The notes under the pieces: generated by a model
What the model was told of the DNA's origin: nothing
The model's input: only the letters and a program-made list of their open reading frames with translations
Database searches by the model: none
Made by a program: the position numbers and the translations under genes
Shown: one piece after another, positions 1,222 to 19,719 of the stretch
Layout of the letters: each line of letters begins with the position of its first letter
Position numbering within the stretch: position 1 is the stretch's first letter
NCBI GenBank assembly: GCA_942492995.1
Contig: OW818653.1
Span: 1,680,001-1,712,000 of the forward strand
Direction of reading: 5' to 3'
Length of the DNA: 32,000 nt
From: an uncultured Erysipelotrichaceae bacterium
Lineage (GTDB): Bacteria; Bacillota_I; Bacilli_A; Erysipelotrichales; Erysipelotrichaceae

Positions 1222-1980
1222 TTAGAATTCTAATTCTTGTTTATTCATATCGGATAATACGTTATACAATCTAGCATTTGTTGCTTCTACATATGGAGCT
1301 ACAAAGTAACTTGATAATCCAAATGTGATTAAACTTAATAAGTTCCATAAGATAAATGAGAAATCTAATATAAAAATATTTCCCTTATGTCCCATTGTCA
1401 TTTGTTTACTCTTACTGAGTACTTCTTTAGGAGTCAAGCTTGTATTTTCAGCTAATAAATAAGGTACGTATCGATATTGATATCCCTTTACAATTCCAGG
1501 AATAATAAATACAAATGTCCATAAGAGTATGTAAATGAAGGCTAATCCTTGAGCTTTTATAATAGGCATATAATCTTTTGAATTGAACCCAAAGAATAGT
1601 TTACTAATATCAACATCTCCTTTAAATGCATCTAAGAAGAATTTACTCTTACCAACTTCGATAATAAACCCTAGTAGTAACATTGCGATACCGATAACAA
1701 TCGATATAAACGATGCCGTACCTAATGCTAGAAATCCTAATGGTCTAATACTACGGAATGCGGATTGAAAGAATTGAAATATTGGCGCAATAGATACCGA
1801 TACATTTCCTTGACCAAATACATATTCATAATTCTGCTTATATTCCATAACCACATTAGACTTCCCATTTCCTAATCCATTCATTAGTAGTGTAGTGATG
1901 AGTACGACTAAAAAGGCTTTCCAATAATGTTGTTTTAGAAAGTCTTTAGCGTAGTCTTTTAATTCGCTTCTTGTCCACAT
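1222..1980 (-). CDS. DUF975 family integral membrane protein
   Basis: N-terminus MWTRSELKDYAKDFLKQHYWKAFLVVL and several hydrophobic helices are typical of DUF975. ATG start with AGGGGGA upstream. Confidence 0.7.
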   Translation of the reverse strand: MWTRSELKDYAKDFLKQHYWKAFLVVLITTLLMNGLGNGKSNVVMEYKQNYEYVFGQGNVSVSIAPIFQFFQSAFRSIRPLGFLALGTASFISIVIGIAMLLLGFIIEVGKSKFFLDAFKGDVDISKLFFGFNSKDYMPIIKAQGLAFIYILLWTFVFIIPGIVKGYQYRYVPYLLAENTSLTPKEVLSKSKQMTMGHKGNIFILDFSFILWNLLSLITFGLSSYFVAPYVEATNARLYNVLSDMNKQELEF

Positions 1981-2014
1981 ATAATATAATCCCCCTTTTA
2001 TTTAGTGTACTATT

Positions 2015-3073
2015 CTAAAATTGTAGGCTATTTCTATCTTTATCATGATTTGATACATGATTTGTAGAACTGTTATAGACAGATTCCATATATTTCAATG
2101 ATTTTTGAAGAACGCTAATAGATGCTGTATATTTATCAAAATCTATTGTAGAGTTTTTTATATCATTCGTTAAACTATCTAACTGAGCTCTGAACTTTTG
2201 AAGGACAGCTTGAGAAGTATAACTATCTTTCTGAGTGTTAATAATAATCTCTTTTATAACAGTTTCCAATTTTGCGGATTGTGTTAATGCGGATTGATTA
2301 GAAGACGCAATATGTGCGAAAGTTTCATCAATGGAAGTTCCTTCATTTAATAATCCTAACATTGCGCCACCACCTATAATAGCGAGAGGAGCATCGGGTT
2401 TACCTGTAGAACCAAAAGGTACATAACTACCACCAATGATTGTGAGTAATCGGTTGTAGTATGAATAGAAATATTTAACGACAAAGCCTATTCCAATTAG
2501 AATCATAATTTCTAGTACGGATAGAAAACCGATTGCGGTTAATGACACTGCAGCTAATATACATGCGATTGCGATAAGGTTCTTTTTGGTAGTTTCGTTC
2601 AATCTCGAGATAGAACTTGAATAAGCATTTCTATATTGATCAACTAATTCAACATCCATTATATTGTTTCTACGAACTAGATCTTTTATTACATTAGTTT
2701 GGTCGTTAAATTTTAATTTCATATAAACATTATCATTCTTTGAGTTTGCGCCTAATGGAGAATATGGCCAAAAATGAGTCATTTCAAACATTAATAGATA
2801 ATACCAAGTCATATTCAGTCCACTTGATTGTAAGTTTTTAATAGCTTCAACAATTCCATCTTCATCGAGTAAAACAACATTCTCATTTAGTGTAATAGTA
2901 GAAATATATTTTAAGTATGGTGTTTCCCAATCTTTTAGCCACATTTGTTTTGCGGATTTTTTACCACCTGATTGTATATCTTTATCTACTAATAGTCTTT
3001 CAATTGAAGCTTTAATAATTAATTGTTCACTATTTAATCCAAATATTGAGATAAGATCGCTACTATAATTCAT
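2015..3073 (-). CDS. Hypothetical membrane protein (352 aa): soluble N-terminal domain, central TM helices, helical C-terminal region
   Basis: Long ORF with GGAGG 6 nt upstream of the ATG. Hydrophobic stretch LIAIACILAAVSLTAIGFLSVLEIMILIGIGFVV. No family recognised. Confidence 0.6.
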   Translation of the reverse strand: MNYSSDLISIFGLNSEQLIIKASIERLLVDKDIQSGGKKSAKQMWLKDWETPYLKYISTITLNENVVLLDEDGIVEAIKNLQSSGLNMTWYYLLMFEMTHFWPYSPLGANSKNDNVYMKLKFNDQTNVIKDLVRRNNIMDVELVDQYRNAYSSSISRLNETTKKNLIAIACILAAVSLTAIGFLSVLEIMILIGIGFVVKYFYSYYNRLLTIIGGSYVPFGSTGKPDAPLAIIGGGAMLGLLNEGTSIDETFAHIASSNQSALTQSAKLETVIKEIIINTQKDSYTSQAVLQKFRAQLDSLTNDIKNSTIDFDKYTASISVLQKSLKYMESVYNSSTNHVSNHDKDRNSLQF

Positions 3074-3099
3074 ATTATTCCTCCACCACGTGTACTTTA

Positions 3100-3128
3100 A
3101 TTCTATTAAATTACTTGTACACTTACAA
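3100..3128 (-). promoter_or_regulatory. Candidate sigma-A promoter for the 3073-1222 minus-strand genes
   Basis: On the minus strand, TTGTAA (3128-3123), a 17-nt spacer, then TAGAAT (3105-3100). Confidence 0.3.
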
Positions 3129-3165
3129 ACATATATTTTGATATTTTAATGTATTCACAATTAAA

Positions 3166-3194
3166 GTAAACGATATAAAGTAAAATGGTATAAT
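3166..3194 (+). promoter_or_regulatory. Candidate extended -10 promoter for the five-gene operon
   Basis: TGgTATAAT at 3186-3194 with a weak -35 (gtaaac, 3166-3171) at 17-nt spacing. A 9-bp direct repeat taaagtaaa occurs at 3162-3170 and 3176-3184. Confidence 0.4.
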
Positions 3195-3235
3195 CTATAT
3201 AAATTAGTTTTATTTTTCTATGCAAGGAAATCATT

Positions 3236-3550
3236 ATGAAAGAAACGATAAAAAGAGTTCTACAATTCACTAAAGAACGAGATTGGGATCAATTCCATCA
3301 TCCAGAGAATCTCGCAAAATCTATTTCTATAGAATCTGCAGAATTATTAGAATGTTTTCAATGGAGTTCTGATTATGATCATGACAAAGTTGTGGATGAA
3401 TTAGCAGATATACTTAATTACTGTATCTTGATGGCTGATAAACTTGATGTAGATATTGAAGAAATAATATTAAATAAAATAGAAAAGAATGAGATTAAAT
3501 ATCCAGTAGATAAAGCTAAAGGCAAAAGCGATAAATATACGAAATTATAG
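3236..3550 (+). CDS. MazG-like nucleotide pyrophosphohydrolase (small all-alpha NTP-PPase)
   Basis: RDWDQFHHPENLAKSISIESAELLECFQW followed by VDELADILNYCILMADKL. These are the ExxE / ExxD metal-binding helices characteristic of the small MazG-like family. Confidence 0.85.
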   Translation: MKETIKRVLQFTKERDWDQFHHPENLAKSISIESAELLECFQWSSDYDHDKVVDELADILNYCILMADKLDVDIEEIILNKIEKNEIKYPVDKAKGKSDKYTKL

Positions 3551-3559
3551 GGGTGGGGA

Positions 3560-5425
3560 ATGATAGTTTATTCGGATTCTAAGTACAATTTCATGGAAGT
3601 TGTTTTGGATGGGAAAATTGCGAATATAGTTGAACAAAGCTTGAGAGAAAGAATTGGTGTTCAAGTATCTTTAGCGGAATTTAATTCTTTCCAGAATTCT
3701 CTAGTTTTTGTGCGCATGATGTTAAGTCAAACAAAATTACATGATGATACTACTGTATCAATAGAATATAGAATTCCTAACACTTCAAAACGAATTGATT
3801 TTATTATCAGTGGATTAACTTTGGAGAATAAACCGAGTGCAGTTATTTTAGAGCTTAAGCAATGGCAACAGGTAGAAGCATTACCATTATCTGATGGACT
3901 TGTTAGAACAGTAGTTGGAGGAGGGAAGAGGATTGTTACTCATCCATCCTACCAAGCGTGGTCATATCAGAGTATGTTAAATGATTATAATGAAAATGTT
4001 TATAGAATCCCTATAGAACTATCCTCATGTGTTTTTATGCACAATTATCCAAGGGTAGACAATGTAGGGATTTTTGATTCTCATTATGAACCATATCTAA
4101 AAAAATCACCTGTTTTTGGACAATCTGATATAAGAAAATTGAGTCAATACATAGATCAAAGAATAGAATTTCCTGATTATAAAAAGACAATTGAATTAAT
4201 AGAATTCGGGAAAATAAAACCATCTAAATCACTTCAAGATTCATTAGCAAATATGCTTGAAGGAAATACTGAGTTTATCTTAATCGATGAACAGAAAGTA
4301 ATCTTCGAACAAGCGATATCTCTTGCTAGACTTTCACAAAAGGATAGAAAGAAAAGAGTCATGATTATAGAAGGTGGACCAGGTACTGGGAAGTCGGTTG
4401 TCGCGATTAATCTAATGGTTCACTTAACTTCAGCATTTGGTATGCATTGTCGATATGTAACTAAGAATTCTGCTCCTCGACAAGTTTATAAATACTATTT
4501 AAGAAAGAATGGTCAAAAAGGTAAGAATATTGATTATCTATTTACTGGTTCTGGTAGTTTTACAGATACTCCAACTGATTACTATCCAGCATTGATAGTA
4601 GATGAAGCTCATCGGTTAAATGAAATGTCTGGAATGTTTGAAAACTTAGGCGAGAACCAAGTTAAAGAAATTATAAATTCATCAGTCTTCTCGATATTCT
4701 TTATCGATCATGATCAAAAAATACATATTAAAGATATTGGAAGCACAGAAGAAATTAAGCGTTGGGCTAAATACCTTAATGCGGAAGTATTTGAGAATAA
4801 GCTAGAGTCACAATTTAGATGTAATGGATCGTCTGGTTACTTGAATTGGTTAGATAATTTATTAGAGATTCGACCAACCGCAAATGAAGTATTTGAGTTT
4901 GATTATGACTTTAAAGTATTTACTGATCTCAATGAAATGCGTAAAGCGATAGAAGAGAAGAATGTAGAAAGAAATAAGTCTAGATTATTAGCAGGATATT
5001 GTTGGAATTGGGTATCTAAGAATAATAAAGACGCATACGATATCGTATTTGATGAGTTCGATTTCAAAATGAAATGGAATTTAAGTAATGAGATTTATGC
5101 AATATCCGACTCATCAATTACTGAAGTTGGCTGTATACATACTTCTCAAGGATTAGAATTTGATTATGTTGGAGTAATTATTGGAGAGGATATGTCATAT
5201 AAAGATGGACATATTGTGACAGATCCATTAAAGAGAGCATCAACTGATCAATCATTAAAAGGTATTAAGGGAATGTTAAAGACAGATCCTGAAAAAGCAT
5301 ATAAGATTGCGGATGAAATTATAAAGAATACATATAGAACTTTAATGACTAGGGGAATGAAGGGTTGTTATGTATATTGTTTAGATAAAAAATTAGAAGA
5401 AATTCTATATTCAGAAACATCATAA
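3560..5425 (+). CDS. DUF2075 domain protein: N-terminal PD-(D/E)xK-like nuclease motif plus Schlafen/Nhi-like SF1-type ATPase
   Basis: Motifs seen: EYRIPNTSKRIDFIISG...VILELKQW (restriction-endonuclease-like), Walker A GGPGTGKS (nt 4373-4396), Walker B LIVDEAHRL, and FRCNGSSGYLNWLDNLL typical of DUF2075. RBS GGGGTGGGG upstream. Confidence 0.85.
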   Translation: MIVYSDSKYNFMEVVLDGKIANIVEQSLRERIGVQVSLAEFNSFQNSLVFVRMMLSQTKLHDDTTVSIEYRIPNTSKRIDFIISGLTLENKPSAVILELKQWQQVEALPLSDGLVRTVVGGGKRIVTHPSYQAWSYQSMLNDYNENVYRIPIELSSCVFMHNYPRVDNVGIFDSHYEPYLKKSPVFGQSDIRKLSQYIDQRIEFPDYKKTIELIEFGKIKPSKSLQDSLANMLEGNTEFILIDEQKVIFEQAISLARLSQKDRKKRVMIIEGGPGTGKSVVAINLMVHLTSAFGMHCRYVTKNSAPRQVYKYYLRKNGQKGKNIDYLFTGSGSFTDTPTDYYPALIVDEAHRLNEMSGMFENLGENQVKEIINSSVFSIFFIDHDQKIHIKDIGSTEEIKRWAKYLNAEVFENKLESQFRCNGSSGYLNWLDNLLEIRPTANEVFEFDYDFKVFTDLNEMRKAIEEKNVERNKSRLLAGYCWNWVSKNNKDAYDIVFDEFDFKMKWNLSNEIYAISDSSITEVGCIHTSQGLEFDYVGVIIGEDMSYKDGHIVTDPLKRASTDQSLKGIKGMLKTDPEKAYKIADEIIKNTYRTLMTRGMKGCYVYCLDKKLEEILYSETS

Positions 5426-5440
5426 AATAGGGGGATAATT

Positions 5441-6070
5441 ATGGGGTCATCAACAAGAAACACTTTTCCACGTTTTAAAAAGAGATTAGAAGAAACTATT
5501 GAACAAGAAGATGAATTAAATATAATTGAAATTTTAAGAAAATATTATTTTAAAAAAAATGGGGTTAGTAATTTACAGAAAAATATAATAACAACATTAA
5601 AATCAAATGAATATATTAATGTCGTTAATGGAATAATTAAGGTTTCAAAAGTTGTAAGTAGTGGACTATTATCGGGATTAGGGTTACCAGGGAATTTTAA
5701 TAGTTTAAATAATTATGAGAAAGTAGATATAATTTCAGATATTATTGGATTAAAAAGTGAACTATTATCTAATTCTTTAAACAAAACATTTGATGAGATT
5801 AATATTGATAATATTATTAATTTCGTAAAAACATTCACTGGGAATATTCTTAAATCAATTATAGAAACATTTTGCATAGAAGATATACTAGAAGTTGTAG
5901 GTGAAGATGCTAAAGAAAAAGCTGAAAATGAAATAAATGATTTCGTTAATGAAACACTTTCAAACATTCCATTTGATTTAGAATATGATGAGAATGATGA
6001 TGCAATAAATTTAACAGAAAAATTGGATAATATGTTTAGAAATATCTATCTAAATCTAAAAGGCAAATAA
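5441..6070 (+). CDS. Hypothetical protein (209 aa), N-terminus MGSSTRN, acidic C-terminus; no recognisable domain
   Basis: ORF with RBS GGGGGA 6 nt upstream. It sits 15 nt after the upstream gene and 5 nt before the next one. Very AT-rich and N/I/K-rich. Confidence 0.6.
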   Translation: MGSSTRNTFPRFKKRLEETIEQEDELNIIEILRKYYFKKNGVSNLQKNIITTLKSNEYINVVNGIIKVSKVVSSGLLSGLGLPGNFNSLNNYEKVDIISDIIGLKSELLSNSLNKTFDEINIDNIINFVKTFTGNILKSIIETFCIEDILEVVGEDAKEKAENEINDFVNETLSNIPFDLEYDENDDAINLTEKLDNMFRNIYLNLKGK

Positions 6071-6075
6071 TCTAT

Positions 6076-7338
6076 ATGTCTAATCAATTACCAACAACTT
6101 TTTATAGTGAACACTTCCAATCAACTCAAGTTAGTTTGTTTGATATAGAATTTAACGATACATTATCATTAGACATTTTTGATATCCTTGCTGGGATCGT
6201 ATATAGAGATTTTGATATGCAAAGAAATGAATATTTAATAAATAAAAATATAGTTTGTATTGATGTAAATAACTTAGAAATTCTTTTGCCATATGTTCCT
6301 ATTTTTGAAGAATTAGCTAGTTATATGACTGGTGAATTATGGAGAGTTGAATTAAAAGAAACTCAAATCTCAAAAAAAATATTTTTTGAGAATGAAAAAT
6401 TAAGCTGGGAAATAGACTCAGTTTGTTTGTTTTCAGGGGGGTTAGATTCTCTAGCGGGAGTTTGTGAAGAGTCCAGATTGAAATTAAAAACTTTGTTGAT
6501 AAATTATCAAACAAATGGTCATGAAATGAAAGTCGCAAAGAGCACTTTTGATGGTTACTTGGTAAAGAATTTCAAGCTTATACAATTTAAGAAAGCAAAA
6601 TATACAAAATATAATCATCATACTCAAAGAACTAGAAGCCTAATATTTATCGGTTGTGCATTTGTGTATTCAAGATTTCTTAATGTTAAAGATATTAAAA
6701 TTTATGAAAATGGTATTATGAGTTTCAACCCAAATGTAGCAAATATTAGGAAAACTTCAAAAACAACGCATCCGAAAACGATTTATTTACTAAATAGAAT
6801 AATGAAAATTTTTAATATTAGAGTATTAAATCCTTTTATTTATATGACAAAAGGTGAAGTAATATCAAGAATTGATGAACAGCTTTTGCCAAATATTAAA
6901 AATACAGTCACTTGTTCTAGAAATCAAAGAATAAAGTATCACTCAGATCGAGGGAATAAATATCAATGTGGTTACTGTATTTCATGTATTTTAAGACAAA
7001 TTGGTATGACCAAAATCCAATTAAATTTTATAGACTCTGAGTATATTACAGAATTGAATGAATATATATTTCCAGAATCTCGATGGATAAACGACGTAAC
7101 ATTGAAGAATATTTATTCTAAAAATCAGTTATATAGACTTAATTATAAAAACTCAACTATTAGATATTTTAGATTTTTAAAAATAGAGTTTGAAAAAGGT
7201 AAATTATTTGAATTACTTAATATTAGAAGTATGTACTTTAATGAAAGCAATTATCAAGAATTAATAATTGGACTATACATGCGCTTTATTGATGAATTAA
7301 ATTATTATTTAGAGGTTATAAATGAAAAAAGAGAATGA
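6076..7338 (+). CDS. QueC-like PP-loop ATPase (7-cyano-7-deazaguanine synthase family) with N- and C-terminal extensions
   Basis: PP-loop VCLFSGGLDSLAG (SGGLDS at nt 6433-6450). NPFIYMTKGEVI resembles the QueC PL..K.EI motif. Zn-type cysteine cluster C..(x)..CGYCISCILRQ (nt 6967-6987). Length is 420 aa versus roughly 220-230 aa for canonical QueC. Confidence 0.8.
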   Translation: MSNQLPTTFYSEHFQSTQVSLFDIEFNDTLSLDIFDILAGIVYRDFDMQRNEYLINKNIVCIDVNNLEILLPYVPIFEELASYMTGELWRVELKETQISKKIFFENEKLSWEIDSVCLFSGGLDSLAGVCEESRLKLKTLLINYQTNGHEMKVAKSTFDGYLVKNFKLIQFKKAKYTKYNHHTQRTRSLIFIGCAFVYSRFLNVKDIKIYENGIMSFNPNVANIRKTSKTTHPKTIYLLNRIMKIFNIRVLNPFIYMTKGEVISRIDEQLLPNIKNTVTCSRNQRIKYHSDRGNKYQCGYCISCILRQIGMTKIQLNFIDSEYITELNEYIFPESRWINDVTLKNIYSKNQLYRLNYKNSTIRYFRFLKIEFEKGKLFELLNIRSMYFNESNYQELIIGLYMRFIDELNYYLEVINEKRE

Positions 7339-7948
7339 ACAACTGAACATTAATAGAAAAAAATTCTATTGTCTTGACAGTAAAAGTAATAATGCATTAA
7401 ATTGTTTTAGTAGAATTAACTCGGATATAAGCCAACTTGTGAACTTAATAAAATTGAATGTAGATATTGATGAATATTCAATGTCAAAGACACTAATGCT
7501 TATAAAATATCTTTTATTGACACTAAAAGAAGCGTTGAAGTTCATATCGAATGTTATCGAAAATGAAAATTTAAAATTATTGATTCCAAATGAAGCAGAT
7601 GAAATTATAAATGAATTATCAAGTGAAATTCTCAATCCTAAATTAGCGGAAGATACATTTAATGCAAGAATTTTGACAAAAGTAAGAGATGATATTGCAC
7701 ATTATTCTATAGATAATAAGCAAGAGCGCAAAAACACTTTAATTTTGACGGAGTTAATCAATCAAGAAAAGAATATGATATTTACTCAAGCCAATAAGCA
7801 AATTGATTTTGAATTATTTACTGATATTTTATTCATAAACAATATTAGTGAAACTGAAAGAAGAGAGATGCTTTTATTAGCTGATAAGATAAGATTATTA
7901 TCAAAACAGGTTTTGATGTATCATATTAAAAATAATATGAAGGTTTGA
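7322..7948 (+). CDS. Hypothetical protein (208 aa), probably all-alpha, with HEPN-like Rx4H motif (RDDIAH)
   Basis: RBS AGAGG 6 nt upstream of the ATG. The start overlaps the QueC-like gene by 17 nt. Motif KVRDDIAHY lies at nt 7685-7702. No family recognised with certainty. Confidence 0.55.
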   Translation: MKKENEQLNINRKKFYCLDSKSNNALNCFSRINSDISQLVNLIKLNVDIDEYSMSKTLMLIKYLLLTLKEALKFISNVIENENLKLLIPNEADEIINELSSEILNPKLAEDTFNARILTKVRDDIAHYSIDNKQERKNTLILTELINQEKNMIFTQANKQIDFELFTDILFINNISETERREMLLLADKIRLLSKQVLMYHIKNNMKV

Positions 7949-7953
7949 GTTAT

Positions 7954-7979
7954 GGAGAGATTTTATTCTCTCCTTTTTT
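7954..7979 (+). terminator. Rho-independent terminator ending the five-gene operon
   Basis: Stem ggagaga (7954-7960) / tctctcc (7967-7973) followed by TTTTTT (7974-7979). Confidence 0.65.
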
Positions 7980-8081
7980 AATTGGAGAATTAATAATTAA
8001 TCTAATCTTTGCCACAATAGTTGAAGAATAATGGTGTAGATGTTGCTATTCTTAAATTGTAGACTATAGGTGAAGGTAAAT

Positions 8082-13940: not shown

Positions 13941-16900
13941 TTACTCTGTTTCTATCACTTTCTGGTATCTAAAACTATAGATTCCAGTACGTATATGATG
14001 ATTCGGATAAACAAGTTGAATCGCTGTACGATAATCATTTAACTGTGAAGAATAAACTTCGATGAGTTCTTGTTCACTCAAATGTCTATCGGTTTTAAAG
14101 TCTACGCAATAAACTGTTTTCTCATCATTCGCTAATATATCCATAATCCCTCTGACAATCTCGTTGTTCGATTGATATACAAAAGGGAATTCCTTATAAC
14201 AGTTAATTGTTTTCATCTTGGTATACCAATCACTGTGATAGAAGGATAATAAGGCTTCTATTTCATCTTCTGTACTATTAGGATCTAATTCTAAGATCTT
14301 TTCTTTTGACCAATCATTAAGTGGTAATTGTTCGATAAGACGATGTAAACGCGTACCACGCTCTTTACCATCATTGAAGTAATCTAAATCAAGATTAGTC
14401 GTAGATGTTTTAAATTCATGGGCTGATGGACGTCTGAATACGATTGAATCTTGATGAGTATTGATAAACGTAAAAGGAGGAGTAGGTGGAGGTGTAGGCA
14501 TTGTGTGAGATTCAATGGTTGATGGATCAATTTCTTTGATCTTAAAAATATCATAAATCTCTCTACCTGCCGCATGCGTTAAGAATGTATAGCCACGATT
14601 ACCTAAGATAAGATCTAAGTTCAACTGTGATTTCTCTAAGTTCTTATGATTCTTATCCACAATAATCAGTTTCTTCTCTGCCCGTGTCAATGCGACATAC
14701 CAGACTCTGAGTGCTTCTTCTTTCTCTTCACGTAGAATCTTGTGTTTAATCCCTAAACTCATTGGATTATCCCGTTTATAGCGTTCTGGTAAGAGAATGG
14801 TATTCATCGCAATCCCAATATCATTATCATAATGAATTAAACTCGAACTATTATGATTCATAAATTGTTTCGTACCTAAGACAAATACAACAGGCCATTC
14901 TAAGCCTTTGGATTGGTGAATGGTTAATACCTTAACCACATCATCTTCTTGAGAAACAGGAATCGCCTCAGAAGTCTTCTCATCTTGAATCGCTTCTACC
15001 ATTTGAATAAACTCAATTAAACTAAAGTTCTCTTCATCCAAACTAATCGCTTTAACTCGTAATAAGTCAAGATTCGTACGTTGTTGGGTATCGATATGAT
15101 GGGTATAATAACCATTAAATTCATAAAGGATATTTAAGAACTCACTGAGTCGTTTATAGTTGGCTTGTCTAACTAATTCCATTAAAGATGCATATTCATT
15201 TGGATAGTTTAATCTGAAACCATCTGTTAGTGAATTTTGACTAACAATTCGTAACTGTGCTAATTTATTCTCATCAAACTCAAAGAACGATGATAATAAC
15301 ACTCCCACAAGCGATAAATCATCTCTTGGATCTAAACAGAATCGTAGAACTTGAAGTACATCTTGAACTGATGACGACAAATAGAAACCAGCTTTCACAT
15401 CAATAAAATTAGGAATGTGATACGCATCAAATGCTTTCTTTAACTCTAACTTTGTACGATGTGATTTAACCAATACAACATAGTCTTTCCAATGTGGATA
15501 GATATTTTCTTTACGCATCTTAATAATCGTTTGTGCAATATGATTCGCCTTAATACGATCTAACTTAATCGTTTCTTCATCACTCTCTTCTAATTCATTA
15601 ATCAAATGGAGTTCAATTGTTTCTCCACCCAATTGCGAATCAACCCCAATCTTCACCGTATCTTGAGGTGAATACGAAGAATCTAAGCCTTGGATGTTCA
15701 TCAAATTACTGAAGAGTTGATTGTTAAATTCTACGATTGATTCTTTCGATCTATAGTTATTACTAAGATATAAGGTTAAATCGCTCGGATTTGTGGATTG
15801 AATTAAACCTTTCATTAATTGTGGACGTGCATTTCTAAACCGATAAATGGACTGTTTCACATCCCCAACTCTAAACACATTATTCCCTCGACTAATACAT
15901 TCAACTAATTCATCCTGTACTTCATTAGAATCCTGGAACTCATCAACTAAGATATCTTTTATTTGATTCCGTAATTGATCAGACACATCAAAATCCGGAT
16001 GTTTAAGTATCTGTAATGCCATCTTTTCCATATCTGAAAAGTCTAAGACCTGTGCTTCTTCTTTAATGGATTGATAAATAAGATTGAAATGTTCTACACA
16101 ATCAATAAGTGCAGAAATCGGTTCTTTTAGATATTCAATATCCCGTAAATAATCTTCTTCCTTGAAGTAATGTGTCACAACACTCTTCACCGTATCATAG
16201 AATTGATCACGCATATTCTTCGTATTCTCTTCTAGTCCACGTAATGGTTTAGCTGTTAAACTACCAAGGATGATCAACGCATGATGGAAGGTATGGTAAT
16301 TGAATGTGTCAAGCGCAAGCGTAGCTTGTACGATAGAATCTTCAAGGTGTTTGATCTGAAACTTTGACTCATCTTGAAGTTCATCAAGAGTAAGAGATAA
16401 CTTAAACTGATTCAATGAATCTGTAAGAGATGTCATATCATCTCTTAACACTTGGAAGAAAGCAGATCTATATGGTTCATCTAATTCAGATAAATGATTG
16501 TATCTTCGATACGATGATTTAATCTGATTCAACCATTGTGTAGGATCAATCTTAGCTTCTAACTTAGAACTTAAATCAAGAATTGTTTCTCTAAGAAATG
16601 TATCTTCTTCAGGTCTATTGTGTAGTATTTGAACTAGATTCAAGAATGCAGGATGTGCTTTCTTATACGCTTCATCCAATACAATATCCAAGGCTTGCGA
16701 TTGATAAATCTTCGAACTCGCTTCATCACAAATCGAATTCGCACGTTTCTGACTAATCCCTAATACATACGCATAATCCTTTACTAAACTTAAACAAAAC
16801 GAGTGAATAGTCGAAATACGAGCAGATGCGAGTAAGGCAATCTGTCGATAAATACGTTCATCATGATTGCGTTGGTACTCTTCTTGAAGTGCTTTAGCCA

Positions 16901-17099
16901 AACGTTTCTTCATCTCAGTCGCAGCCAAATCCGTAAACGTCATCGCTAAGATCTCATCCACATTCACGCCATCCTCTAAAATACGTTTCATCAAACGCGC
17001 AATTAAAACCGTTGTTTTACCCGCTCCTGCTGAAGCGGACAGAATAATATTCTTGCCTACGGTATTAATCGCAGCTAATTGTTCAGGACTCCGTTTCAT
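13941..17099 (-). CDS. addA: ATP-dependent helicase/nuclease subunit A (AddA/RexA)
   Basis: UvrD-type motifs SASAGAGKTT and ILVDEFQDSN, plus the C-terminal RecB-nuclease motif GIMDIL...VYCVDFKTD. The ATG at 17099 has AAGGAG 6 nt upstream; the ORF-track start at 17102 is a GTG. Confidence 0.9.
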   Translation of the reverse strand: MKRSPEQLAAINTVGKNIILSASAGAGKTTVLIARLMKRILEDGVNVDEILAMTFTDLAATEMKKRLAKALQEEYQRNHDERIYRQIALLASARISTIHSFCLSLVKDYAYVLGISQKRANSICDEASSKIYQSQALDIVLDEAYKKAHPAFLNLVQILHNRPEEDTFLRETILDLSSKLEAKIDPTQWLNQIKSSYRRYNHLSELDEPYRSAFFQVLRDDMTSLTDSLNQFKLSLTLDELQDESKFQIKHLEDSIVQATLALDTFNYHTFHHALIILGSLTAKPLRGLEENTKNMRDQFYDTVKSVVTHYFKEEDYLRDIEYLKEPISALIDCVEHFNLIYQSIKEEAQVLDFSDMEKMALQILKHPDFDVSDQLRNQIKDILVDEFQDSNEVQDELVECISRGNNVFRVGDVKQSIYRFRNARPQLMKGLIQSTNPSDLTLYLSNNYRSKESIVEFNNQLFSNLMNIQGLDSSYSPQDTVKIGVDSQLGGETIELHLINELEESDEETIKLDRIKANHIAQTIIKMRKENIYPHWKDYVVLVKSHRTKLELKKAFDAYHIPNFIDVKAGFYLSSSVQDVLQVLRFCLDPRDDLSLVGVLLSSFFEFDENKLAQLRIVSQNSLTDGFRLNYPNEYASLMELVRQANYKRLSEFLNILYEFNGYYTHHIDTQQRTNLDLLRVKAISLDEENFSLIEFIQMVEAIQDEKTSEAIPVSQEDDVVKVLTIHQSKGLEWPVVFVLGTKQFMNHNSSSLIHYDNDIGIAMNTILLPERYKRDNPMSLGIKHKILREEKEEALRVWYVALTRAEKKLIIVDKNHKNLEKSQLNLDLILGNRGYTFLTHAAGREIYDIFKIKEIDPSTIESHTMPTPPPTPPFTFINTHQDSIVFRRPSAHEFKTSTTNLDLDYFNDGKERGTRLHRLIEQLPLNDWSKEKILELDPNSTEDEIEALLSFYHSDWYTKMKTINCYKEFPFVYQSNNEIVRGIMDILANDEKTVYCVDFKTDRHLSEQELIEVYSSQLNDYRTAIQLVYPNHHIRTGIYSFRYQKVIETE

Positions 17100-19719
17100 C
17101 ACTTGCTCCTTCGACTAAACTCTTAATACTCGTACGATTACGTTCTTCCTTCTCTTCGCCCCTAAACTGACAAATAGCCTTGTAGTCGCAATATTTACAT
17201 CCATCTTTTACCACATCTTTATCAATGACACCGTCTTCAAGTGAATGATAGAGAAGCGTATATAAATCACGAATCGCTTGATTCAATAGTTCTATATTGT
17301 ACTGTTTAGACCGTGTAACTGTTCCGCCTTTTAACTTCAATCCTTTAATGTATTTCGCAGATGTATCTTGATTCGCCTCATCATCCAAGGTATATCCAAC
17401 CCATTGACGTAACTTGAGATAATCGTCTTCATAATCTTTATTCGTTAACTCAACCATACCTTTTGTCTTCGCATAGGTATATGGTTCGATTGAAACAGAA
17501 CCTGGTTGACCAAACGACGCATAGTAAATTCCTGACGCAATCTTATCAAACAATTCTTTACTGAATAATGCATACGTTGGTAACTGTAATTTATTTCCAC
17601 TTAATACAGATTTTTCACTCAGTGATTTCGCACTACTCTTATAATCCACAATCCTAACGTATTCATCTCGTACATCAACACGATCAATAAATCCCTTTAG
17701 ATGGACTTGTTTATCTTGATCAATCGTAATGGATTGATTAAACTCTACTTCAACTTGATAGGGCGCATATTCTGTATTCTGTTCTAACGCCGCAAAATTA
17801 TTTAAACTCTCAAGAATCAACTGTTTAGCCCGTTCTTGAATGGAAAGGATACGTGAAATTTGTTTAGGATACAACTTCATTAAGTCATTAAACATTGGGT
17901 CAATCAATTCATTTATATGACGTTTCCCAAAATTCGGATAATCCTTACCAGCCTTATGTACACTCTGTTCAAACACCGCATGCGAAATGGTACCCATTAA
18001 TGAATTATCAATCGTAAAAGGTTTTTGGATATATAGTTTTAATCCTGATTTTAAATAATATTGATACGGACAACGGAAGAAACTCTCAAACGAAGAGACA
18101 CTTCCATACAATCCATCCTGTTTAAAAAAGAGTTCTTTCGCAATGGTTGGATCTAATTTAAATACACGCTCATGTTTAACTTCTGCTTCAATCAATTCTA
18201 ACGGTGTAAACTTAGGTCCATTATGTCGTTTCAAGAAATCTTCAATCTCAAACGATAATGAAGCACCTTTGCCCTCATAATTCCCTACTGAATAGGTAAA
18301 ACACGTATTCTTAGATAACTTAAAAATCGTCTCTAACTGAGTCATATGCCAAAGATAACGTTCACTCGAAGTATCACTGATACATTGATTAAAATAAGTC
18401 TCATCAAAGAATCCACTGTGAACAGGATATTGCGGATAATTCTTCGATGAACATCCCAACACAAACATCTGATCCATAAATGGAATCATCGCATTTGTAA
18501 GTGACACAATCTGTATGCCTTGTTCAGTTGATTCAGATTCTGATAATTGTTCCAACTGATGAATTAAATAGGGAATTGATTGAGGACTAGTTAAGTAAGG
18601 AAGAGAAGTTTGAAGACATTGTCTAATCTGACTAATCGCAGAAGGATTATGCGAAAGTTGAGTGAATAAATTAAATAATCGTTTAATGGTTTCAACTAAA
18701 TCAGAACTATACTCAAAGTTAATAAGCTCAAGATACAACGGTCTACACTCATCACTCTTACGCTCTATCTCCAATAAATGTTTAATACTCCGTTTATCCC
18801 AAATATCATTCTCATATAAGGTATCGTTTAAATGCGTAAATGTTTGATTAAAATCACTGAGATTTGGAGACGCAATCTCAATGTATTGTAAGAGCTGTAA
18901 GGTATGTGAACTATGAATCAAACCACTCTTGATAATCTTGACTAGCTTATCCATACTCGGATTCAACACAAACGCTAAACAATCCACAAACTGTCTAGCT
19001 TCAATGAGGGTTATTTTCTTCTGATAGGTATACGGTATTTTAAGTTGCGATAAATAATGCGTTAAGGGTTCAATCGTTTCAGGATCTAAACATACAATCA
19101 CTGTTTTATCATACGCAATCTTTGATTGAGCAATCTTCTGTACAACGCCATACGCTTCCATCCGCGGATTCTTCGCATAGTACGCCTCAAAGGTTGTTTG
19201 AACTTCATGAATCTCTAAAAACTTTGCGCCTTTATCCATCAATTGATCTAAACGTTTCTTTGACGCATAGGATTGATAAGACGGTATTATCTGAATCGAT
19301 TGATCAAATTGTTTCAGATTAAATTGGGTATAACTCAATGCCTTCGGATGTTTATCGGGATTTAAATACGCTAATAAACGTTTCAATTCCTTATCCTTAT
19401 TAGACATATTCGGTAAATCATCTAAGTGTATATTCTCTTCTGCCATCTCATCCATAAACGCTATTAATTCATCTATCGCACTTGGATAATCCAAGCTTTT
19501 TAATAAAATCGGAAATTCACGACGATGGGATAGGATAACTTCTACACATTGCCAATAATATTCCAACGAACTAGGTAAGACTTGGTCTAATTTCACAAAG
19601 TTATCCCAGGATAAGAATTCAGTCCCAAACAGAATAGGATTTTCATTCATAAAATGCTTAATCACCGCTTTTTGAGCGTGTTTTTGTGTGATAACTGTCG
19701 TTATTATGTGCTTGTTCAT
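17083..19719 (-). CDS. addB: ATP-dependent helicase/nuclease subunit B (AddB/RexB type)
   Basis: C-terminal nuclease motif GFIDRVDV...VRIVDYKSS and Fe-S cysteines (FFRCPYQYY, CKYCDYKAIC). The 3' end overlaps the addA start. The N-terminus lacks a Walker A motif, as in RexB-type subunits. Confidence 0.85.
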   Translation of the reverse strand: MNKHIITTVITQKHAQKAVIKHFMNENPILFGTEFLSWDNFVKLDQVLPSSLEYYWQCVEVILSHRREFPILLKSLDYPSAIDELIAFMDEMAEENIHLDDLPNMSNKDKELKRLLAYLNPDKHPKALSYTQFNLKQFDQSIQIIPSYQSYASKKRLDQLMDKGAKFLEIHEVQTTFEAYYAKNPRMEAYGVVQKIAQSKIAYDKTVIVCLDPETIEPLTHYLSQLKIPYTYQKKITLIEARQFVDCLAFVLNPSMDKLVKIIKSGLIHSSHTLQLLQYIEIASPNLSDFNQTFTHLNDTLYENDIWDKRSIKHLLEIERKSDECRPLYLELINFEYSSDLVETIKRLFNLFTQLSHNPSAISQIRQCLQTSLPYLTSPQSIPYLIHQLEQLSESESTEQGIQIVSLTNAMIPFMDQMFVLGCSSKNYPQYPVHSGFFDETYFNQCISDTSSERYLWHMTQLETIFKLSKNTCFTYSVGNYEGKGASLSFEIEDFLKRHNGPKFTPLELIEAEVKHERVFKLDPTIAKELFFKQDGLYGSVSSFESFFRCPYQYYLKSGLKLYIQKPFTIDNSLMGTISHAVFEQSVHKAGKDYPNFGKRHINELIDPMFNDLMKLYPKQISRILSIQERAKQLILESLNNFAALEQNTEYAPYQVEVEFNQSITIDQDKQVHLKGFIDRVDVRDEYVRIVDYKSSAKSLSEKSVLSGNKLQLPTYALFSKELFDKIASGIYYASFGQPGSVSIEPYTYAKTKGMVELTNKDYEDDYLKLRQWVGYTLDDEANQDTSAKYIKGLKLKGGTVTRSKQYNIELLNQAIRDLYTLLYHSLEDGVIDKDVVKDGCKYCDYKAICQFRGEEKEERNRTSIKSLVEGASDETES

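Follow-up and report, generated by a model that had tools for sequence, protein, structure and literature searches.

A 32,000-nucleotide stretch of DNA from an uncultured Erysipelotrichaceae bacterium (contig OW818653.1, positions 1,680,001 to 1,712,000; the whole stretch is referred to as the window) was analysed in order to evaluate three adjacent genes, B, C and X, that resemble part of QatABCD, an anti-phage system reportedly described by Gao and colleagues in 2020. The three genes close a run of five close-set open reading frames (ORFs) on the plus strand at 3236-7948 that encode, in order, a MazG-like protein, a DUF2075 protein, B, C and X (Table 1). A sequence-only reading of the same DNA had likened four proteins of 621, 209, 420 and 208 amino acids (aa), placed at 5441-7948, to the Qat proteins. 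Their order and sizes agree with the ORF list, all on the plus strand, and the interval does hold B, C and X; the ATPase lies outside it, upstream. The likeness stood for the 209-aa protein, which is QatB-like, and for the 420-aa protein, which is QatC-like, but not for the 621-aa ATPase as QatA, as this is of the DUF2075/superfamily 1 type and not of the KAP type. We favour, at a probability of roughly 0.7, the explanation that B-C-X (5441-7948) constitutes a variant Qat anti-phage system of three genes with a QatB-QatC core.

Table 1. Features of the B-C-X locus, in window coordinates
Feature	Position	Strand	Basis or remark
B, QatB-like protein, 209 aa	5441-6070	+	ORF list and profile comparison
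C, divergent QatC, 420 aa	6076-7338	+	ATP-dependent PP-loop enzyme of the QueC family, extended at both termini in the manner of QatC
X, 208 aa, third gene in the usual QatD position	7322-7948	+	orphan family, mostly helical
DUF2075 / SLFN-group-3-type helicase, 621 aa	3560-5425	+	PF09848 7e-100
MazG-like pyrophosphohydrolase, 104 aa, fixed partner of the DUF2075 gene	3236-3550	+	PF12643 3e-20
Intrinsic terminator (7954-7973 plus T-run), GGAGAGA-loop-TCTCTCC	7954-7983	+	closes the operon after X
AT-rich intergenic region, likely promoter region of the MazG-to-X unit (inferred)	3074-3235	+	only sizeable upstream non-coding gap

The QatB-QatC pair

Gene C was compared with three profile collections. 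The QatC models of PADLOC (1.9e-37) and NCBIfam (NF041925, 5.9e-43) were ahead of the corresponding QueC models (2.4e-7, and 4.9e-4 for TIGR00364) by more than 30 orders of magnitude, and the Pfam QueC family PF06508 matched at 3e-10. A PDB sequence search with C returned 9zee_B at 5e-18, and the only solved relatives were the QatC chains 9zee_B and 9vlk_A. Aligning C to the QatC proteins annotated by the Prokaryotic Genome Annotation Pipeline (PGAP) on eight qatABCD plasmids revealed that every invariant of canonical QatC was kept, including D33, D45, R50 and W89 of the N-terminal domain, SGGxDS at 120-125, TxRxRSxxF at 183-191, ENG at 211-213, K259, the zinc site C280/C298/C301/C304, R307 and the C-terminal region. 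The QatC motif set (SGGxDS, RxRxxxF, ExG, HP, Px4TK, Cys4 and T-x-T) was present throughout, with S228 replacing a threonine; S228 and T230 are the counterparts of T278 and T280 in Pseudomonas aeruginosa QatC, the latter of which is kept. The PP-loop SGGLDS at residues 120-125 and the last zinc cysteine at 304 leave about 115 aa on either side, in agreement with the long extensions that the sequence-only reading had pointed out. Such N- and C-terminal extensions are a QatC hallmark (PMC13279940), and as those of C match canonical QatC they represent no novelty. On sequence grounds C is a divergent QatC.

The PF06508 match would also be accounted for if C were a QueC with a housekeeping role, or an enzyme of the DpdC or Cap9 type making 7-deazaguanine for tRNA modification, DNA modification or the cyclic oligonucleotide-based anti-phage signalling system (CBASS). 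We consider this close to negligible, as the QatC models score at least 30 orders of magnitude better and C reached 19.7 bits on the QueC equivalog model TIGR00364, which falls short of the cut-off of 150. In addition, a Pfam scan of the larger ORFs of the window returned no queD, queE, queF or tgt, as had been noted before, and no CD-NTase, TGT domain or dpd gene, and canonical QatC is unable to stand in for a deleted queC (PMC13329287). The earlier argument against housekeeping preQ0 synthesis held, the extensions of C being alignable with canonical QatC.

Protein B starts with MGSS (N-terminus MGSSTRNTFPRF) and is composed of an N-terminal region of about 57 aa followed by a helical domain. 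A start of the form MG[ST]S.[RK] was observed in all 35 distinct proteins encoded upstream of Firmicutes QatC genes, a few over-extended ORF calls having been trimmed to that start. In QatB, Gly2 of the MGTS motif is essential (PMC13279940). Profile-profile comparison bore out the proposed likeness of the 209-aa protein to QatB: the profile of the B family matched a canonical QatB profile, built from the sequences of annotated qatABCD plasmids, at 94.8% probability (E 4.9e-8, 153 columns), and that canonical profile in turn matched the crystallised QatB chains 9vll_A (1e-58) and 9zee_A (6.5e-53). The B proteins associated with X matched those of Firmicutes B-C-TatD operons at 97.2% (E 2.8e-11) while negative controls with the X family stayed below 1%. 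Based on the universal MG[ST]S start and these comparisons, B is assigned as a divergent QatB and presumed to be both protein substrate and hub. An AlphaFold2 (AF2) model of B computed without an alignment was uninformative, with a predicted local distance difference test (pLDDT) score of 43.5.

Annotated qatB starts looked wrong in two other loci. The Roseibium ORF annotated by PGAP at L050:2728-3321 reaches an upstream MGTSGSS, and the N-terminus annotated for Erwinia qatB (L049:3934-4821) does not carry the MGTS motif. Misannotation of qatB has already been noted (PMC13279940).

The third gene and its exchange

The neighbourhoods of QatC relatives were read in assembly contigs, 39 GTDB genome loci and 78 IMG/VR loci (L-numbers are labels of the neighbourhoods read and W is the window locus). 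Within low-GC gut Firmicutes the B-C pair was constant and the third gene varied. X took the third position in W, L001, L002-4, L011-13, L015, L016, L021-23, L038 and L136-141, and it directly followed B-C in every context read; the linkage of B-C-X is strict. The order recurred in at least 14 distinct loci, including the window and L001, at protein identities of 23-37%, which argues against a chance arrangement. A TatD gene (PF01026) was third in L008, L017 and the L026-L042 group of a clade with QatC of about 401 aa. A divergently transcribed DUF4238 gene was found in L005-7, L009-10, L018-20 and L024-25. In fact, every seemingly two-gene B-C locus of the clade with QatC of about 430 aa, meaning one that has neither X nor TatD, carried a DUF4238 gene (PF14022) divergent from B, which points to DUF4238 as a third unrelated Qat partner. 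X, TatD and DUF4238 were mutually unrelated in profile comparison. The third gene on the QatBC backbone is interchangeable.

KAP-type QatA was present in none of the related Firmicutes QatBC loci; phmmer searches with four QatA queries found it in canonical loci only, and canonical A-B-C-D operons were recovered as controls. The subfamilies of B co-varied with the type of partner, which fits QatB as a hub whose N-terminal loop binds QatD (PMC13639016). A survey anchored on QatD described 98% of qat clusters as full qatABCD (PMC13434339). Elsewhere about 34% of QatC-cluster genes were reported to neighbour QatA or QatD, the neighbours of the remainder being unstated (PMC13329287).

A number of additional observations were made on these neighbourhoods. 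The DUF4238 partner spans about 330-357 aa (for example L005:6214-7269, minus strand) and had no PADLOC match. QatB-C-TatD operons that lack QatA made up essentially the entire sampled Firmicutes clade with QatC of about 401 aa (L008, L026-L037, L039 and L042, several of these). The loci obtained by scanning IMG/VR with QatC included none of the X type and were mostly canonical qatABCD or members of a longer QueC-like family. The latter appears to be a separate and large family of QueC/QatC-like ORFs of about 550-800 aa preceded by a protein of about 260 aa, and was seen in L040, L041, L043, L045 and most of L060-L130 (IMG/VR). In three of the genome loci the upstream protein has MGH[EK]R at its N-terminus instead of MGTS. 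A gene of about 770 aa is often next, although these lengths stem from a crude ORF caller and may be over-extended.

X itself belongs to an orphan family. A profile search of 5.8 billion clusters retrieved 52 proteins, all of them strong matches with nothing weaker, and four clusters were retrieved when 1.84 billion representatives were searched exhaustively with HMMER. Neither X alone nor 37 family members gave a match in Pfam, PADLOC, NCBIfam or among PDB sequences, and a scan of JGI metagenomes for the family returned none. At about 25% identity the family retains 17 invariant columns, 13 of which are polar or aromatic (R12, Y16, R31, D35, K62, E70, E102, N114, R122, H127, Y128, E164 and D168). 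The AF2 model of X has a pLDDT of 86.5 and a predicted template modelling score of 0.82, and is made up of helices at 20-45, 51-80, 90-103 and 132-147, a beta-hairpin at 153-165 and a helix at 177-205. Taken together, the invariant columns, the confident fold prediction, the overlap with C and the terminator that follows make X look like a dedicated, folded component.

X is not TatD. The fourth protein had previously been set apart from TatD by its missing HxH motif, and this was confirmed; H127 is the sole invariant histidine, no family match was obtained and profile comparison with TatD gave a probability of 0.3%, so that the QatD slot holds a different protein. No TatD gene was detected elsewhere in the window among the larger ORFs scanned with Pfam. 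X was also considered as a truncated DUF4238 or TatD protein and this was ruled out, as the families are unrelated in profile comparison. Alternatively, the locus could be what is left of a decayed Qat operon after the loss of QatA and QatD, with X an unrelated gene located downstream by coincidence. Truncated forms of the qat operon are on record (PMC13434339), but this explanation is very improbable for B-C-X given that X occurs only downstream of B-C in all contexts examined, is translationally coupled to C and is conserved to about 23% identity over at least 14 distinct loci. Furthermore, none of the B, C and X ORFs is disrupted, and each keeps its invariant residues.

The invariant residues N114, R122, H127 and Y128 of X form the motif N-x7-R-[N/D/H]-x3-H-Y. 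R-[N/D/H]-x3-H is the signature of HEPN proteins, and an HEPN-type Rx4-6H motif with a polar residue after the arginine is present in X as R122-[D/N/H]-x3-H127 across the 37 members. The motif hints weakly at an HEPN-type RNase. Foldseek searches with the AF2 model gave nothing significant in PDB or BFVD; against PDB all matches had E of 0.8 or more, and 7 HepT/HEPN toxin chains were among the top 50 non-significant matches. An HEPN-like RNase is, narrowly, the preferred guess for X given the motif and the mostly helical structure, yet it is a tentative one, and about as probable as X being non-catalytic. Another enzymatic activity is possible.

A non-enzymatic X would be an adaptor, regulator or phage sensor on the QatB tail that, for example, restrains QatBC or widens its phage range, with QatBC delivering the defence. 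The small, mostly helical protein, for which no catalytic fold was detected with Pfam, PADLOC, NCBIfam or Foldseek, is in line with such a role, and QatBC alone protects against some phages while QatA and QatD only change the range (PMC13279940); on that account X may be an accessory instead of the killing component, and to call it the effector, as the sequence-only reading presumed, is an assumption. On the other hand, the Arg-His pair and the other invariant polar or aromatic residues, 13 in all, resemble an active site more than a surface for binding, and the same slot holds enzymes such as TatD in sister systems. We view a non-enzymatic X as a tentative option as well.

In one sub-branch (L011, L013, L136-L138, L140 and L141) a Fic-domain protein of about 280 aa is encoded about 45 nucleotides (nt) after X, for example at L136:6660-7505 and L140:6651-7487; the window does not have a Fic gene. 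In the HEPN toxins of the HepT type the motif takes the form Rx4HxY, and AMPylation of its tyrosine neutralises the toxin. By analogy, it is conceivable that Fic controls X via the tyrosine right after the invariant histidine.

The operon, the MazG-DUF2075 module and the hotspot

MazG, DUF2075, B and C are separated by gaps of 9, 15 and 5 nt, and X begins within the end of C, with which it shares 17 nt. No terminator-like site was found at the DUF2075-B junction or at any of the other short ones, and the sole terminator candidate other than the one after X lies inside gene C. Based on the tight spacing, the lack of a terminator-like site at the junctions and the terminator after X, all five genes probably form one transcript in this genome. 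Weak sigma-70-like matches at 3138-3181 were no commoner than in shuffled sequence. The guanine-cytosine (GC) content of B, C and X is 23-25.5% and that of MazG, DUF2075 and the flanks is 29-32%, which puts B-C-X 5-8 points below its neighbours. An Rfam search of the window gave no match.

The 621-aa ATPase had been typed as DUF2075 before, with which its match to PF09848 (SLFN-g3_helicase) agrees. It did not match PF07693, the family of the KAP nucleoside triphosphatase (NTPase) QatA (PMC13279940), and its PADLOC matches, to PDC-S41, AbiO and Nhi, were weak. MazG-DUF2075 pairs recurred in L001, L005-7, L011, L016, L134, L135 and L138. L134 and L135 encode a DUF2075 protein from the 90%-identity cluster of the window protein, and both keep the arrangement DUF975(-)/MazG/DUF2075. 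Downstream of DUF2075, L134 carries Gabija (GajA at 8e-109 and a UvrD-like gene) and L135 a 189-aa gene with an FRG/PDC-S15 candidate. In the window and in L001 the same slot is occupied by QatB-C-X; the stretches compared were 1222-5425 of the window, L134:6783-12523 and L135:6786-11382. The slot downstream of DUF975(-)/MazG-like/DUF2075 is a defence hotspot, and B-C-X is most simply read as a cassette that entered it beside a resident MazG-DUF2075 module. No paper covering both DUF2075 and MazG was found in a literature search.

The compact operon could instead be taken as one five-gene system, in which MazG-like and DUF2075 proteins act with B-C-X and the DUF2075 helicase fills the role of QatA. 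This would explain the short gaps, the overlap and the single terminator after X, the occurrence of the same block in L001, where QatC is 76% identical, and the presence of MazG-DUF2075 within 7 kb of QatBC in L005-7, L011/L138, L016 and L032, if in differing arrangements. We nevertheless regard it as unlikely, and a functional link of MazG-DUF2075 with B-C-X equally so. Most B-C-X loci (L002-4, L012, L013, L015, L021-23, L038, L136, L137 and L139-141) have no DUF2075 gene nearby, and where one is present it is adjacent upstream, convergent, or 3-4 kb up- or downstream depending on the locus. In close relatives MazG-DUF2075 is retained and accompanied by Gabija or PDC-S15 where the window has B-C-X, and the GC content of B-C-X is below that of MazG-DUF2075. 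DUF2075 and KAP are different families, and canonical QatA binds none of QatB, QatC and QatD (PMC13639016). As DUF2075 is of another family than KAP, is missing near most B-C-X genes and is kept with Gabija and PDC-S15, the ATPase is a neighbour and not the QatA counterpart.

Three observations concern the surroundings of the module. In Paraliobacillus salinarum (L032:4055-5947) a QatBCD operon is immediately preceded by a DUF2075 gene that is broken into ORFs of 464 and 155 aa and is probably frameshifted or a pseudogene. In the window, a 352-aa ORF at 2015-3073 (minus strand) with a membrane/coiled-coil look by sequence and no significant family match sits between DUF975 and MazG; it is not at that position in L134 and L135 and may be another variable insertion. 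Downstream, at 13941-19719 (minus strand), an AddA-like UvrD helicase (1053 aa) and an AddB-like PD-(D/E)XK protein (878 aa) are encoded. A similar UvrD-like gene of 1046 aa abuts MazG-DUF2075 in L005-7, which suggests that the hotspot has conserved chromosomal surroundings.

Proposed mechanism and relation to known systems

Beyond the identity of B and C, we infer what follows, that is the chemistry, the binding of X to B, the activity of X and the anti-phage function. Going by its characterised homologues, C, as a PP-loop, zinc-binding and ATP-dependent member of the QueC family, would bind B at a ratio of 1:1. Removal of the initiator methionine from B would expose Gly2 and the flexible N-terminus of B would enter the active site of C, where C and ATP would join a carboxylate ligand, deazaguanine-like or other, to the Gly2 amine. 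This would parallel the reaction of Cap9 with CdnD in type IV CBASS and what has been proposed for QatC and QatB. X would replace the TatD nuclease QatD as third subunit, probably docking on B as QatD does on the QatB tail, and would perform or tune the anti-phage output, possibly as an HEPN-like RNase. The MazG-like and DUF2075 proteins would be a separate resident two-gene module that flanks the hotspot and is co-transcribed with B-C-X, and not an equivalent of QatA.

Several points weigh against the favoured explanation. C scored 147 bits on NF041925, below the NCBIfam equivalog cut-off of 280, and has a serine (S228) at the position of the essential T278 of P. aeruginosa. The QatB models of PADLOC and NCBIfam do not detect B, and PDB searches with B or with the B-family profile did not find QatB. 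The X-associated B subgroup on its own reached a probability of 36% against canonical QatB, and the link therefore runs via intermediates. The HEPN idea derives from the motif, which lies in a lower-confidence loop of the model (pLDDT about 69), there being no profile match and a Foldseek E of 0.8 or worse. MazG-DUF2075 occurs no more than 7 kb from QatBC in several loci, in five arrangements overall, and no terminator separates it from B here. Lastly, the canonical QatC reaction has not been reconstituted, including with 7-carboxy-7-deazaguanine (PMC13279940, PMC13639016).

The main open question on Qat is the output of QatBC, i.e. what modified QatB does. QatBC is the minimal defence unit (PMC13279940), and the loci described here are natural QatBC cores without QatA and QatD, each accompanied instead by a third gene from one of three unrelated families. 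As the subfamily of QatB varies along with the third gene, these cores support a modular view of Qat. A more far-reaching version, which we consider doubtful, holds that QatBC is a general core, in which a QueC-like enzyme modifies the N-terminus of a hub, with interchangeable outputs comprising at least three unrelated partners in Firmicutes. X would then be an HEPN-like RNase effector docked on the QatB tail and switched by the QatC-catalysed modification, and Fic might control X via its tyrosine as MntA controls HepT. X and DUF4238 are two new candidate families of Qat partners, and the compact three-gene systems of low-GC gut Firmicutes are suited to dissecting the link between QatB and its partner. 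Published Qat surveys describe canonical qatABCD and truncated forms and no alternative third partner (PMC13434339, PMC13329287), and no mention of X or of a DUF4238 partner was found in the Qat literature searched. Loci of this kind probably escape annotation as Qat, since with the current PADLOC and NCBIfam models B and X go undetected and C receives too low a score.

In comparison with known systems, X shares with HEPN effectors and toxins of the HepT, Csm6, Cas13 and Abi_2 type a small, mostly helical build, R-[N/D/H]-x3-H followed by tyrosine and an effector-like operon position, but differs in its additional beta-hairpin and long C-terminal helix and has no profile or significant structural match to them. 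The likely chemical logic, a QueC-family enzyme acting on the N-terminal glycine of an adjacently encoded partner, is common to Cap9-CdnD of type IV CBASS. Cap9 is, however, a minimal protein of about 185 aa in which the substrate motifs of QueC are preserved, whereas C has 420 aa with QatC extensions, and the CD-NTase substrate, the TGT-like Cap10 and the cyclic-nucleotide effector of CBASS have no counterpart at the window locus.

The locus is a variant of the known Qat system and not a new type of system. With QatABCD it shares a QatC with N- and C-terminal extensions, SGGxDS loop and zinc Cys4 site (structures 9zee/9zef and 9vlk/9vll), Ser/Thr-x-Thr where QueC has Tyr-x-Asp, an upstream QatB-like helical protein with an MG(S/T)S start, the order B-C-third gene and a defence-island setting. 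It differs in having neither the KAP NTPase QatA nor the TatD protein QatD (PF01026, HxH), the third gene being the orphan X; in a B that current QatB models do not detect and that has 209 aa, as opposed to 240-300 aa for QatB, and a shorter tail; and in a C that falls below the NCBIfam equivalog cut-off. The closest sister architecture is the QatBCD operon of Firmicutes with QatC of about 401 aa (L008 and the L026-L042 group, for example), with which it has in common the B family (97.2%), the order B-C-third gene and the lack of QatA. The two are told apart by the third gene, a recognisable TatD (PF01026) in the sister operons and X in the window.

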